From a virus: DNA of 64,000 nucleotides. Position 1 is the stretch's first letter. Each line of letters begins with the position of its first letter. The DNA lies in IMG/VR virus record IMGVR_UViG_3300005573_000063, positions 1 to 64,000 of that record. The stretch is one strand, 5' to 3'. Below, piece after piece: positions 40,502-55,748 of this stretch. Both the position numbers and the translations under genes were made by a program. The notes under the pieces are model-generated. The model was given only the letters and a program-made list of their open reading frames with translations. It did not search any database and was not told the origin of the DNA.

Positions 40502-40579
40502 TACCGGATATCAGAATCGAACTGATCTACGAACAAGAGTTATAAGCTCCCCGGCTGCCAACCAGGCGCCTCATCCGGC
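40502..40579 (-). tRNA. tRNA-Ile(TAT)
   Basis: GCCGGAT/ATCCGGT; GGGAG-CTTATAA-CTCTT; ATCAG-TTCGATT-CTGAT. Confidence 0.75.
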
Positions 40580-40921
40580 ATTGTTATTGGGCTTACCCCT
40601 ATCATCAAATTCAGGGTGTTCCTTCATGAACCGTAGTATAGCAAGTGCATGGAATGCAACAGCAGCCATATGAGGAGAACCTGTCTCCGGATCGAAATCC
40701 TCACCACTCATGAACAAGGCTAGATGACGCCCTAAAGCTCCCAAAGACAATGACCACTCATAGCCCTTTTCCCAATTTCTGTCGTCGTATTTGAGGGCTC
40801 CCTTTCCATATAATTCAGCTACTTCCCACAGAGCATCCCAAGGTATCAAATCAAATCTTGCTAGTTTCTGACCTTTTTGTCCACCAGTTACAGACGTTTT
40901 TCTGACTTCTTCTTTAGACAT
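40571..40921 (-). CDS. dATP/dGTP diphosphohydrolase-like (DUF5664-type) protein
   Basis: RFDLIP...GALKYDDRNWEKG...RH...DPETGSPHMA. Confidence 0.8.
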   Translation of the reverse strand: MSKEEVRKTSVTGGQKGQKLARFDLIPWDALWEVAELYGKGALKYDDRNWEKGYEWSLSLGALGRHLALFMSGEDFDPETGSPHMAAVAFHALAILRFMKEHPEFDDRGKPNNNAG

Positions 40922-41501
40922 GAATTTTTGAGTTATCCTCCTCCTGAATGATCTTCAAGAAATCTGCCCAACTATCAATTAGATAAGGATGGCCCGCTTG
41001 ATCTTTTCGTGGATAGTCTGCTCCCGGAGGAGATTTAAGAAGAAATGCCTTAGTCCCTACTGCTCTCAAGGCATCTACATTTTTAGGACGATCATCTATA
41101 AAATAATCGGTAGGAGCTGATGTTTTGTCCGATGAAATAATCAATCCTGCATGAGGAATGTCCCAATTGGAGAGCCATTCTTTAGTTGAATCTGTAACTA
41201 TCTCAGGATCACCAACTCCACGATCTGTAATAATATATAGACTATGACCCATATCGGCTAAGATATCCAGTGTCTCCACTGAATCAGGGAAGGGCTCTCC
41301 TGTCCTAAAAACTTCTCCCGCATTCACACCATCCTCAAACCACTTAAGATATTCGTCTAATTCCATCCCCCAATCCGTCTTGTAGAACTCCCAGCAGGAG
41401 GGGACTGCAGACAAAGCTAATCCACTTTTAGTGTAGATATAGTTGGCTAATGCTTCTGTGAAATTGTATACACACCCATCTAAATCAACCCCTATTCTCA
41501 T
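40914..41501 (-). CDS. HAD-family 5'(3')-deoxyribonucleotidase
   Basis: IGVDLDG, ITDR, K...FIDD. Confidence 0.8.
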   Translation of the reverse strand: MRIGVDLDGCVYNFTEALANYIYTKSGLALSAVPSCWEFYKTDWGMELDEYLKWFEDGVNAGEVFRTGEPFPDSVETLDILADMGHSLYIITDRGVGDPEIVTDSTKEWLSNWDIPHAGLIISSDKTSAPTDYFIDDRPKNVDALRAVGTKAFLLKSPPGADYPRKDQAGHPYLIDSWADFLKIIQEEDNSKIHV

Positions 41502-41509
41502 CTTCTTCC

Positions 41510-42127
41510 TTAATCTCGTGGTAATGCAGCTAGCTCGTCATCGTTTCGCACAAAGTCCACAAAATCGTAAGACCTCTTATTCATGACTCTAGCAACCTCT
41601 TCAAATGAAACAGGTCGATACCCTACAAAATCTATCGTATTATCCACTCCAACATCTACTCTGGTATTTCCTTTGTTGTTGAGGTTGTTGTGGCAGTGAC
41701 CATGCAGCATCCAAGAGCCCTTTCCCGCTCCATTCCACGAAAGAATAGGATAGTGGCATAAGACAATTTTCTGTCCATCTACCTTAATCTCGGCATACTG
41801 CCCATAGAACTCGAACAGTTTTTTGCCTTCTTCACTCTTAGCAATTTGGTCGGTTACCTTCTTATCATGGTTTCCGGAAATAAAGTGCTTTTTCCCATTC
41901 AACTGACGAAGAACTGAAAAAGTCTTTTCCTGATTCATAAAGGAGAAATCTCCTAGGTGCCATACTGTATCATCAGGCTGAACCATGCTGTTCCAATTAG
42001 CAATTAACTTCCAGTTCATTTCATCTGCATTGGCATATGGACGAAAGCAGATACGTCTCACAAATTCATGTCCGAAATGTAGTTAAAGATCTGAAGTAAA
42101 CCAAGTCATTGGTTTTCTATCAGACAT
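41510..42127 (-). CDS. Calcineurin-like phosphoesterase with in-frame TAA in motif I (recoded or pseudogene)
   Basis: MSDRKPMTWFTSDL*LHFGH, then intact HLGD, GNHD, CHYP and HGHCH motifs. Confidence 0.75.
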
Positions 42128-42232
42128 AATTCATCACTCTTCCTTTCTTTTTATTTTTAGTATTTTTCCCAGTAACAGACGTAAAATCAAGTGCCCTAAA
42201 TGAGTATCGCTAGTGAAGAATGTGCTTATACA

Positions 42233-42679
42233 TTATCCTCCTTGACAGGCTGTATCCTTTATAATTCCAGGTACCTTAGATGCTACAGCAATTTCACAGA
42301 TCAGTCTTCTATTAACTGCATCTGTCGCAATGATATGAGATATATCTTGCTGCAGAATACTCTCTGCTGTTTTAACAAGAGCAGCTTCTTTTACGGCTGC
42401 CTGCGCTGCAGTACTAGCTGAAGCTGCTGCACTTTGTTTGTCATGCGTTAGTAGTGCTTCGATGTCCTTAGAGAGTCGCAAGCGAGTTTGGCTGTTGGCA
42501 TTATTAGATAGCTCCAGTGTTTTGATATCTTTTACAATACTGTGGGTGCTATTGCTAATCGCATTTTGTCTGTTAGTTGTTTGGACTGTTTGGTAAAATG
42601 CCTGAAAAACTGCTCCCAATACAGCAAGAGTAAAAAGTAACACTGCAATTCCAATAAACCATTTTCTTAGTCTGGACAT
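42233..42679 (-). CDS. Membrane-anchored coiled-coil protein
   Basis: N-terminal TM segment, long helix, C-terminal Cys pair. Confidence 0.5.
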   Translation of the reverse strand: MSRLRKWFIGIAVLLFTLAVLGAVFQAFYQTVQTTNRQNAISNSTHSIVKDIKTLELSNNANSQTRLRLSKDIEALLTHDKQSAAASASTAAQAAVKEAALVKTAESILQQDISHIIATDAVNRRLICEIAVASKVPGIIKDTACQGG

Positions 42680-42765
42680 TTATCTTTCCTTAAGTATTTC
42701 TTTCGATACTAAATAATGCTCTCATGTCCAGATATTACATAAATGCTACTTATGATCTGTGCCGG

Positions 42766-42854
42766 TGGACGCACTGGGATTCGAACCCAGGATGGGCTTT
42801 TAAGCACTCCAGATTAAAAGTCTGGCTCAATCGACCTAGCTCTGTCATACGTCC
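42766..42854 (-). tRNA. tRNA-Lys(TTT) with long variable arm
   Basis: CCAGA-CTTTTAA-TCTGG; CTGGG-TTCGAAT-CCCAG. Confidence 0.8.
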
Positions 42855-43068
42855 ATGTTTACTTCACTCTACATCTTATTGATAATGATTGCAACCTCCT
42901 CTTCAAGATCTTCTAGTCTTTGCTCTAGATTAGCTACTCTATTTTTTAGAGCCTCAACTTCTGAAAAATCCTCTTGAGGTGTAGGAATTGACATTGGACT
43001 TGCGGGGAGATCCCACAAGCTATAGTTACTAACTCCGCTAGTTTTCATAGTAAATTCCTTTCTTTTAG

Positions 43069-43139
43069 TAGACGCACTCAGAATCAAACTGAGGAAGAGG
43101 CCGTGTAAAAGCCTTATTTTATCACTAAATTATGCGTCC
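43069..43139 (-). tRNA. tRNA-Val(TAC)
   Basis: AGGCT-TTTACAC-GGCCT; atypical T-loop TTTGATT. Confidence 0.7.
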
Positions 43140-43140
43140 A

Positions 43141-43229
43141 TGGGGTGAATAACCGGATTTGAACCGGCACGAGCATTATGCTCAATAGGGTCACAACCTA
43201 TCGCGTCTACCAATTTCGCCATATCCACC
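43141..43229 (-). tRNA. tRNA-His(GTG) with long variable arm
   Basis: G-1; ATAGG-TTGTGAC-CCTAT; GAGCA-TAA-TGCTC variable stem; CCA. Confidence 0.85.
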
Positions 43230-43234
43230 ATGTT

Positions 43235-44011
43235 TTACTTCTCCTCCAGAGTACCAGCTTCCACTGGCAGTGTCAAGAGGTACGTTGCATTATCTATATT
43301 CCCCCAAGGAATATTAGCACCCATGCCGTGCACCTTAGTAAGGTGACCATCTGGAGATACATAATCCTTGTCGTAGCGTACATGATGATGTCCGTGGAAC
43401 ATCTCATCTGGCTCACAATAATTTACAATTGCACCAATGCTTCTTCTTTGCTGCCTACTATCTAGGCTTATTTCTGGAGGCAGCCACCTATCATTGTAGC
43501 GTGGGTCTATATCAGAAATTTCTGTGAAGGGGCATTCATGTGACACGAAATAATCTACTTTTCCTGCAGACATAGAACGCTCTACATCCCCCAAAGAAAT
43601 CATTTCTTGAGGCCACCAGCTCTTACCCATAATACGACTCTCCCGATCAATAGAGACAGCTCCTCCACAAGAGAGAAATTTCTTATTACTCCAGTCCCAA
43701 GTATATCCTCGTGGCAAGTAGAACACACCAGGAGCTATCTCGAAGGTACCGTCTTCTTGAGGTGCCAATGTCCCCACAGCATCATAATTTTCGTGATTAC
43801 CCCCTAACCAATAGAGGGGAATTCCATAATTTTGTACACACTTAGACACCCATTTATGGTATGCGCCCATATGAGGCCAGTATCCAAAATCTCCTAGTTG
43901 AAGAATTACTTCAGCTTTTCTCTCGCTCGCACGCTTAAACACACGAGAGGTAAAAGAGTCGTCTCCGTGAAGATCCCCAACCATTAGGATTTTTGAATAA
44001 TTGCCTTCCAT
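43235..44011 (-). CDS. Metallophosphoesterase
   Basis: GDLHG, LGDFG, GNHE, GGAVSID, HGHHH. Confidence 0.85.
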   Translation of the reverse strand: MEGNYSKILMVGDLHGDDSFTSRVFKRASERKAEVILQLGDFGYWPHMGAYHKWVSKCVQNYGIPLYWLGGNHENYDAVGTLAPQEDGTFEIAPGVFYLPRGYTWDWSNKKFLSCGGAVSIDRESRIMGKSWWPQEMISLGDVERSMSAGKVDYFVSHECPFTEISDIDPRYNDRWLPPEISLDSRQQRRSIGAIVNYCEPDEMFHGHHHVRYDKDYVSPDGHLTKVHGMGANIPWGNIDNATYLLTLPVEAGTLEEK

Positions 44012-45351: not shown

Positions 45352-45428
45352 AGCCGCAAGGGGGAGTCGAACCCAAACCTTCCTCTGACTTACAGGGCCA
45401 GCGCTACATCCATATGAGCTTTTACGGC
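45352..45428 (-). tRNA. tRNA-Thr(TGT), C33 and weak T-stem
   Basis: GCCGTAA/TTGCGGC; CTGGC-CCTGTAA-GTCAG. Confidence 0.6.
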
Positions 45429-54674: not shown

Positions 54675-54747
54675 TGCCCTCGGAGAATTTCAAAATCTCG
54701 ACTTCCTCGTTAAGAGCGAGGCACTCTAGTCTCTGAGTTACGAAGGC
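54675..54747 (-). tRNA. tRNA-Lys(CTT)
   Basis: CCTCG-CTCTTAA-CGAGG. Confidence 0.75.
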
Positions 54748-54860: not shown

Positions 54861-54861
54861 G

Positions 54862-54942
54862 TGTCCATGGAGAGACTTGAACTCTCACGCTTGCGCATAT
54901 GTTCCTAAGACATACGTGTCTACCAAATTCCACCACACGGAC
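54862..54942 (-). tRNA. tRNA-Leu(TAG)
   Basis: TATGT-CTTAGGA-ACATA; class II variable arm. Confidence 0.85.
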
Positions 54943-55674: not shown

Positions 55675-55748
55675 TGGAGACAACGAGAATCGAACTCGTC
55701 ACATTTTCCTTGCAAAGGAAATTCGCCAGCCTTGGTACATGTGTCCCC
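55675..55748 (-). tRNA. tRNA-Ala(TGC)
   Basis: G3:U70; TTTCC-TTTGCAA-GGAAA. Confidence 0.85.

Follow-up and report, generated by a model that had tools for sequence, protein, structure and literature searches.

A putative stop-hop cassette in the metal-binding motif of phage phosphoesterase genes

Natural translational bypassing is well documented in very few systems, namely gene 60 of phage T4 with its relatives and the byp elements of yeast mitochondria, to which the terminase gene of Streptomyces phage Hau3 can be added as a candidate. As for hopping over an in-frame stop codon, the 2016 review by Atkins and colleagues describes, in its passages on this subject, synthetic stop-hops in Escherichia coli reporters with a stop set between matching codons (Weiss, Dunn, Atkins and Gesteland 1987), states that 'no occurrences are known' naturally, and adds that gene 60 has 'long been presumed' to have counterparts of lesser length (PMC5009743). 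In the relevant parts of a preprint on gene 60, the bypassed insert is reported to guard against nicking by MobA, the type of endonuclease varies within the system, and the cassettes outlive the endonuclease (10.1101/2022.08.31.505936). In the Hau3 terminase gene, a bypass of 10-nt blocks after UUA has been proposed, and a junction peptide was detected by mass spectrometry in E. coli (PMC10732093). Here we examine a calcineurin-like metallophosphoesterase gene in a 64,000-nt stretch (hereafter, the window) of the 122,096-base virus record IMGVR_UViG_3300005573_000063, in which an in-frame TAA between two Leu codons interrupts the Asp-x-His metal-binding motif, and we consider it likely that the six extra bases constitute a programmed +6 translational bypass (stop-hop) cassette. 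A first-pass annotation of this DNA had proposed natural programmed bypassing at this site, and had regarded stop-hopping between matched codons as established in E. coli reporters; the latter is confirmed for synthetic constructs (PMC5009743), while the former gains support from the recurrence of the site, a covarying hairpin and matched-codon variants with +5 and +11 steps, the mechanism itself being deduced from sequence.

The phosphoesterase frame (Table 1) is composed of an open reading frame (ORF) of 14 codons (ORF1), the stop, and a second one of 190 codons in which the landing Leu is included (ORF2). From the ATG at 42127-42125 on the minus strand, the peptide M-S-D-R-K-P-M-T-W-F-T-S-D is encoded, followed by CTT-TAA-CTA and then by H-F-G-H, after which 186 further codons are open to the terminal TAA. 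The earlier description of WFTSD-CTT-TAA-CTA-HFGH at 42080..42088 was indeed exact when the minus strand was read again, and so was the claim that Leu-stop-Leu read as a single Leu restores D-x-H with the later motifs intact: in an alignment with 26 homologues (A1), exactly one residue separates the invariant Asp and His in 26/26, two extra columns are filled by the window gene alone, and the invariant motifs GD, GNH, H, GH-H and D-G-D are all kept. Motif I of the window gene therefore has the spacing of the family only if the nine bases yield one Leu. When the stop was rendered as X in the query, the protein matched Pfam PF12850 (Metallophos_2) with 34.6 bits (cut-off 27).

Table 1. Positions of the interrupted gene, its proposed recoding elements and the phage tRNA-Leu(UAG) gene in the window
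Feature	Position	Strand	Remarks
Calcineurin-like metallophosphoesterase gene	41510..42127	minus	in-frame break after codon 14; ends with TAA 41512-41510
Shine-Dalgarno-like AAGGAAGAG	42137..42145	minus	9-17 nt 5' of ATG; predicted from the sequence alone
5' hairpin	42089..42125	minus	37 nt, 15 bp with two small interruptions; predicted free energy (dG) -12.9 kcal/mol; also the centroid fold
Take-off codon CTT (Leu14)	42086..42088	minus	read from sequence
In-frame TAA, next base C (TAA-C)	42083..42085	minus	proposed A-site occupant at take-off
Landing codon CTA (Leu)	42080..42082	minus	decoding would restart at CAT (His) 42079-42077
tRNA-Leu(UAG) of the phage	54861..54942	minus	ARAGORN; Rfam tRNA 53.3 bits

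The six bases are found in DNA beyond the record itself. Window 41000-43200 is covered by Logan contigs from two runs, which belong to 2 samples and 2 studies, and these contigs carry the same six bases; over the 2.2 kb, 8 substitutions relative to the window were counted in one and 5 in the other, with zero differences at 42077-42127. Given that two differing contigs carry the six bases, the cassette is present in three slightly different genomes, and the sequence occurs in runs labelled as hot-springs metagenome. The Logan evidence consists of assembled contigs of DNA runs, from which rare variants are dropped and in which transcripts are invisible. An artefact of sequencing or assembly might be suspected, as the record was assembled from a metagenome and its tail, beyond the window, is suspicious: positions 112000-122096 have a G+C content (GC) of ~69% against ~41% elsewhere and show long open frames on all strands, which suggests that the assembly is chimeric or that foreign DNA is joined on there. 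Nonetheless, the contigs of the two runs share the six bases though their single-nucleotide polymorphisms (SNPs) differ elsewhere, and the same arrangement occurs on 19 other viral contigs from 16 metagenome datasets (counted by IMG/VR record prefix); the probability of an artefact is hence negligible, and the assembly error that the first-pass annotation had listed among its alternatives is excluded by the independent contigs. The contig of one run (X1) has an extra A at 41499, inside the ATG (41499-41501) of the NT5C gene; a TTG one base on would preserve the NT5C frame, and either the start codon varies here or the contig is in error.

The closest protein in a collection of 5.8 billion proteins was 55% identical to the window product; a search of viral contigs with the single protein hit one locus (48%), a metagenome scan hit three loci (44-50%), and a search of GenBank phage DNA with a 901-base query gave, as its sole match, 79 bases in Cellulophaga phages. 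With the best protein relative only 55% identical, close relatives were not usable, and viral contigs were instead scanned for patterns, whereby the matched-codon/stop/matched-codon check suggested by the first-pass annotation was carried out. In the first scan (F-T-[ST]-D, any 9 nt, H-F-G-H), seven loci were hit, one of which was unrelated; the other six were phosphoesterase homologues, all with Asp-Leu-stop-Leu-His. When YTN-TRR-YTN was fixed and the flanks were relaxed (scans 2 and 3), 8 and 16 loci were found, every one of them a phosphoesterase homologue. Combined, the scans give 19 viral contigs besides the window, with 14 distinct sequences. The stop in the 15 distinct sequences, the window included, is TAA in 4, TAG in 7 and TGA in 4; TGG and TTN, which scans 2 and 3 permitted, occur in none of 24 rows, so the Leu codons are always CTN, in the pairs CTG/CTG, CTT/CTC, CTA/CTC, CTT/CTT, CTT/CTA and CTG/CTA. 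In prokaryote genomes (596 Gb), by comparison, the pattern of the first scan gave 22 matches, none with a phosphoesterase continuation by translation and none with Leu-stop-Leu. Judged by these patterns, 0/22 in prokaryotes versus 6/7 in viral contigs, the site is more than chance.

We also fetched 80 loci of the family from viral contigs by homology, and D-x-H was intact in 77 of them. Insertion of two residues by sense codons was seen in neither the 6 homologues of the first scan nor the 80 fetched loci, and a widened spacing of motif I is therefore apparently not tolerated. The whole 122-kb record was likewise inspected for a further site that combines a stop between matched codons, an extended open frame after it and a hairpin reaching up to the take-off codon, and no other clear example was seen in the low-GC part. 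To see whether any cultured phage bears the cassette, we ran tblastn with the window ORF, four cassette ORFs and the ORF of locus L013, and there was no match above 60% identity. In the records of Limnohabitans phage DC31, crAss-like cr55_1 and Curvibacter phage P26059A, the coding sequence is annotated from ~20 nt 5' of the match, which suggests, by annotation alone, that the genes in these three records, of roughly 1,450 more matched, are uninterrupted.

The remaining three of the 80 fetched loci, in whose retrieval codon matching played no part, are variants that differ in the step size: L063 has Asp-ATC-TAG-CGAGG-ATC-His (an 11-nt move), L066 has Asp-ACT-TA-ACT-His (a 5-nt move, with TAA in the A site), and L092 has His(CAT)-TAG-His(CAT) (a 6-nt move). 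In each of them, the codon of take-off recurs unchanged at landing, C comes next after the stop, and there is a 5' hairpin. This C is indeed shared by every one of the 18 distinct sequences, cassettes and variants alike, and C after a stop is the weakest termination context in E. coli. Because the +11 and +5 moves of L063 and L066 shift the frame, read-through cannot rescue these genes, and only landing on the matched codon restores the enzyme.

These variants bear directly on read-through or local suppression of the stop, by which an enzyme with Asp-Leu-X-Leu-His would be made. The frame is maintained across the stop in the window gene, and the phage has 24 tRNA genes, both of which suit such decoding. 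None of the 24 tRNA genes in the window, however, has a stop anticodon (ARAGORN and Rfam), and TAA terminates the phosphoesterase gene itself as well as its neighbours, so that the signs of stop reassignment are absent. Given furthermore that all three stops are used among the relatives, that two-residue insertions by sense codons are absent from the homologues, and that the frame is shifted in the +5 and +11 variants, we regard read-through as highly improbable.

Equally improbable, in our estimation, is termination followed by re-initiation, which would give a 14-residue leader peptide and then an N-terminally truncated protein from GTG 42061 or later. This is what gene callers report, namely a 183-codon ORF from GTG 42061, and the recorded product is the corresponding 183-residue fragment. 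Such a product, nonetheless, would be without three residues of motif I, the invariant Asp and two His; moreover, F-T-S-D is kept in phase upstream in every relative, and the matched codons would be left without a role.

A hairpin immediately 5' of the take-off codon is a further common property of the cassette genes. For each sequence, we folded 66 nt, which comprise 60 nt upstream, the Asp codon and the take-off codon. The window hairpin begins at the G of the ATG and closes with the final base of the Asp codon, and its 3' arm thus abuts the take-off codon. In all 15 distinct cassette sequences, there is a helix of 9 to 19 bp, the 3' arm of which is formed by the Thr-Ser-Asp codons and the end of which lies 0 to 3 nt past the last base of the Asp codon, at the take-off codon. 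As controls, 71 distinct upstream sequences were obtained from the 77 intact fetched loci. The mean minimum free energy of the 66 nt was -21.1 kcal/mol in the cassette genes versus -7.8 kcal/mol in the 71 intact ones (Mann-Whitney p 2e-9); helices that end at this position with a dG of -7.7 or better were found in 15/15 cassette sequences versus 6/71 controls (p 2e-12), and only 1/71 controls had one stronger than that of the window. The wobble base of the Ser codon is paired in 15/15 (C-G 6, G-C 5, A-U 3, U-A 1) and that of the Thr codon in 14/15 (C-G 5, A-U 4, G-C 3, U-A 2). The stem hence covaries with the synonymous codon choice, and three G-U pairs agree with a fold of the sense-strand RNA. 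The 5' arm sits in a short N-terminal extension that is absent from typical intact genes. No structure stands out downstream, within 48 nt past the landing codon (mean -5.9 kcal/mol, weak). From this conservation and covariation, we infer that the hairpin would be a cis-acting stimulatory signal for the hop. A strong hairpin (-15.2 kcal/mol) was also noticed at the cassette position in one intact homologue, L076, whose lineage may once have had the six bases or may be poised to acquire them.

A hairpin 0-3 nt from a short direct repeat would also fit the geometry of hybrid shearing, and the matched codons double as direct repeats in the nucleic acid. Removal at the RNA level might accordingly be considered, in which the nascent hairpin realigns RNA polymerase from the first CTN to the second and some of the mRNA lacks the six bases. 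This leaves unexplained why the codon after take-off is a stop, and is followed by C, in 18/18 distinct sequences; the shortened form was not seen in DNA contigs, though contigs lose rare variants, and we know of no precedent for a polymerase jump of 5-11 nt on a 3-nt repeat, which also counts against this explanation. We therefore consider removal at the RNA level very unlikely.

Cassette-bearing genes show signs of purifying selection. In the clade L013/L015/L020, all members of which bear the cassette with TAA or TGA, the ratios of nonsynonymous to synonymous substitution rates (dN/dS) are 0.10, 0.09 and 0.18 with dS above 1, while two other pairs were saturated. The frame is open from the His codon on for 169 to 215 codons in 12 of the 14 sequences other than the window. 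All four SNPs within the phosphoesterase gene among the three assemblies are synonymous and at third positions, which is a small sample yet not the pattern of a decaying gene. A maximum-likelihood tree was built quickly from 89 rows, of which 73 are intact genes, 13 have Leu-stop-Leu and 3 are variants (two short sequences were omitted). On it, the Leu-stop-Leu state requires 9 changes, at least 4 of which are forced by well-supported branches; several cassette genes are sister to intact genes, and the row nearest to the window is an intact gene with 47% identity. This scattered distribution implies many events of gain, transfer or loss of the cassette at a single site.

These data also weigh on the possibility of a dead gene, in which the 6-nt insertion inactivates the phosphoesterase and the phage depends on another Metallophos gene. 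Such a gene does exist in the window: a second, uninterrupted calcineurin-like phosphoesterase (43235-44011, minus strand; Pfam Metallophos, E 2.7e-12) is located 1.1 kb upstream of the interrupted one. Furthermore, the downstream part is truncated or degraded in 2/14 distinct relatives, namely the L021/L029/L030 type and L025 (4/19 contigs), which means that some cassette-bearing copies are dying. In the L021 type, the GD motif lacks its Gly and most of the central part of the gene is missing, and in L025, which adjoins a LAGLIDADG gene, a stop appears after 33 codons. A dead gene, nonetheless, is hard to reconcile with 190 open codons in which every catalytic residue is retained, and with the synonymous SNPs and the low dN/dS in the cassette-bearing clade; it would also leave the matched codons and the covarying hairpin at a fixed position (15/15) unexplained. 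Inactivation thus appears improbable, albeit less so than the other alternatives considered here, and pseudogenisation, which had been named as an alternative at first pass, is unlikely on the grounds of the dN/dS of 0.09-0.18 in this class and the 4/4 synonymous SNPs in the window.

Returning to the programmed stop-hop, the site has the properties expected for bypassing: CTT and CTA can be paired by one tRNA, and a slow A-site codon, a stop, directly follows the take-off codon. After initiation at ATG 42127 and translation of 14 codons, the ribosome would pause, its P site occupied by peptidyl-tRNA-Leu on CUU and its A site by UAA-C, and termination would then compete with dissociation of the peptidyl-tRNA from the codon. 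The peptidyl-tRNA would then release CUU, the mRNA would slide by six bases, and the tRNA would re-pair at CUA, so that decoding restarts at the His codon; the nine bases would yield one Leu, and the Asp-Leu-His metal-binding motif would be restored. The hairpin would have been unwound by the ribosome, its 3' arm lying in the E site and in the exit channel for the mRNA when take-off occurs; its re-pairing behind the ribosome, where the 5' arm has already emerged, would most likely provide a forward pull on the mRNA.

The phage gene for tRNA-Leu(UAG), which the first-pass annotation had reported, is indeed present (Table 1), and from its anticodon this tRNA could pair with both CUU and CUA. Relatives, however, use CTG/CTG, CTT/CTC and other pairs, and this tRNA is hence not a general requirement. 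The genes for Lys(CUU) at 54675-54747, Ala(UGC) at 55675-55746 and Thr(UGU) at 45352-45428, all on the minus strand, were found only by Rfam and missed by ARAGORN at default settings, and several tRNAs in the window are over-long (His 88 nt, Met 85 nt and Glu 86 nt). At 42764-42854 (minus strand), ARAGORN predicts a tRNA Lys(UUU) of 91 nt with a long variable arm (Rfam tRNA 48.4 bits); such an arm is the shape of Leu, Ser or Tyr tRNAs and is unusual with a Lys anticodon, and this type-II tRNA could carry another amino acid.

Several points weigh against the stop-hop. The case for it is comparative, for the window as well as for every relative. Synthetic stop-hops have a low efficiency of about 1%, UAA is recognised by both release factors, and the nascent chain is only 14 residues long, so that a nascent-peptide signal like that of gene 60 is unlikely. 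The window hairpin is among the weakest of the 15; the wider 131-nt fold around the site is not unusual (z -0.42), the signal being the local hairpin alone; and without the energy threshold, helices at this position are found in 24/71 intact controls, though weak (mean -5.1 kcal/mol). The window lineage has no relative above 55% identity, and the evidence from within the lineage amounts to the four SNPs. The degraded state of two distinct relatives counts here as well, as does the intact second Metallophos gene, which could render the interrupted one dispensable. Finally, no homing endonuclease is found beside the window gene: the upstream ORF of 148 residues has no Pfam or PHROG match, and the downstream one is NT5C.

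Such endonucleases do lie next to some of the cassettes elsewhere. We inspected the ORF directly upstream for Pfam endonuclease domains (E up to 0.001) and found one in 5/14 distinct cassette loci: LAGLIDADG in L013, L015 and L025 (the match in L025 being below Pfam's own cut-off), NUMOD3 in L023 and HNH in L036. Among the intact controls, 58/70 loci had an upstream ORF of 100 residues or more on the same strand, and an HNH domain was found in 2/58 versus the 5/14 cassette loci (Fisher p 0.002). One of the three variants (L066) also has an upstream LAGLIDADG domain. With PHROGs, which was used on the cassette loci and not on the controls, the upstream ORF of L016 is an HNH endonuclease (E 7.5e-41). 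The upstream ORFs of L033 (341-859; +6, Leu) and L063 (138-968; +11, Ile) share an unnamed family, phrog_23051, with one weak NUMOD3 match, and this family may be an unrecognised homing-endonuclease family. By analogy with gene 60, the cassette probably originated as a scar that makes the DNA encoding Asp-x-His immune to a neighbouring homing endonuclease. The footprint of a mobile element, another alternative of the first-pass annotation, is thus partly supported, as an origin and not as a rival to bypassing: endonuclease genes are enriched upstream of cassette genes, although none adjoins the window gene.

As to the function of the enzyme, two products are encoded directly downstream (40571-41501, minus strand), an NT5C deoxynucleotidase and a protein with the N-terminal domain of dATP/dGTP diphosphohydrolases (E 4.5e-33), and together with the phosphoesterases these form a nucleotide-pool module. 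Intact homologues often lie behind genes for RtcB, RNA ligase or AAA_33 kinase (L039, L075, L059, L086, L089, L100, L105, L107 and L108), which suggests a role of this phosphoesterase family in RNA end-healing or repair.

In comparison with the known systems, the closest likeness is to T4 gene 60. In terms of what is described of that gene in the parts of the literature drawn on here, both have matched take-off and landing codons with a stop in the A site at take-off, and both inserts lie within an invariant metal-binding motif, take-off coming right after an Asp codon; in both, the site appears to have been invaded more than once independently, and the cassette seems to persist where the endonuclease is gone. 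Homing endonucleases of more than one type, as in gene 60, lie near the cassette in some of the loci. The host gene is different, however, and the gap is 3 nt (the stop alone) here versus 47 nt in T4 gene 60, which is a 50-nt bypass; the take-off stem-loop and the mini-Shine-Dalgarno sequence 6 nt before landing, for which so short a gap leaves no space, and the long nascent-peptide signal of gene 60 are not found here. The 5' hairpin, on the other hand, is conserved here but not, according to parts of the preprint, among gene 60 clades (10.1101/2022.08.31.505936). The phosphoesterase cassette therefore works like gene 60 in principle while being outside that element family.

The synthetic stop-hops have steps of +5 and +6, as named in the title of the 1987 paper, and the same steps occur among the natural variants here. 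Those sites were engineered, whereas sites of the window type are natural, recurrent, under selection, and always behind a covarying 5' hairpin. The constructs of Weiss et al. in 1987 reportedly had low efficiency and no dedicated stimulator. The byp elements of Magnusiomyces capitatus, which span 27-55 nt, are mitochondrial, with an unused sense codon in the A site and, as far as the consulted passages go, no homing-endonuclease context. They nonetheless resemble the present case in that many short inserts are neutralised by matched-codon bypass (PMC5009743, PMC10732093). The Hau3 terminase gene is also alike as a short bypass in a phage gene with a 5' stem-loop as the proposed stimulator; as described in parts of the report, its trigger is the rare sense codon UUA and not a stop, the frame changes, and only three such genes were found (PMC10732093). 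In the literature on bypassing with phosphoesterase and stop-hop terms, we found no report of bypassing in a phosphoesterase, supplements such as the clade tables of the gene 60 preprint excepted.

Taken together, we somewhat favour a broader proposal: that phages carry a modular and repeatedly acquired mini-bypass, made up of a 5' hairpin that abuts the codon of take-off, a stop with C next to it and, 5-11 nt further on, a matching codon for landing, which would be an endonuclease-immunity scar in a catalytic motif with the enzyme kept, and in which the pull of the hairpin would make the hop efficient. If true, such cassettes would be the first family of stop-hops known from nature, and with them ribosome sliding could be studied in a minimal system. 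The cassette offers independent lineages, natural step sizes (+5, +6 and +11), variants of the stop and of the codon pair, and a covarying hairpin, and as it fits in ~50 nt, it is easy to test in reporters. In terms of annotation, furthermore, gene callers truncate the cassette genes, and split-looking genes beside homing endonucleases may be functional.
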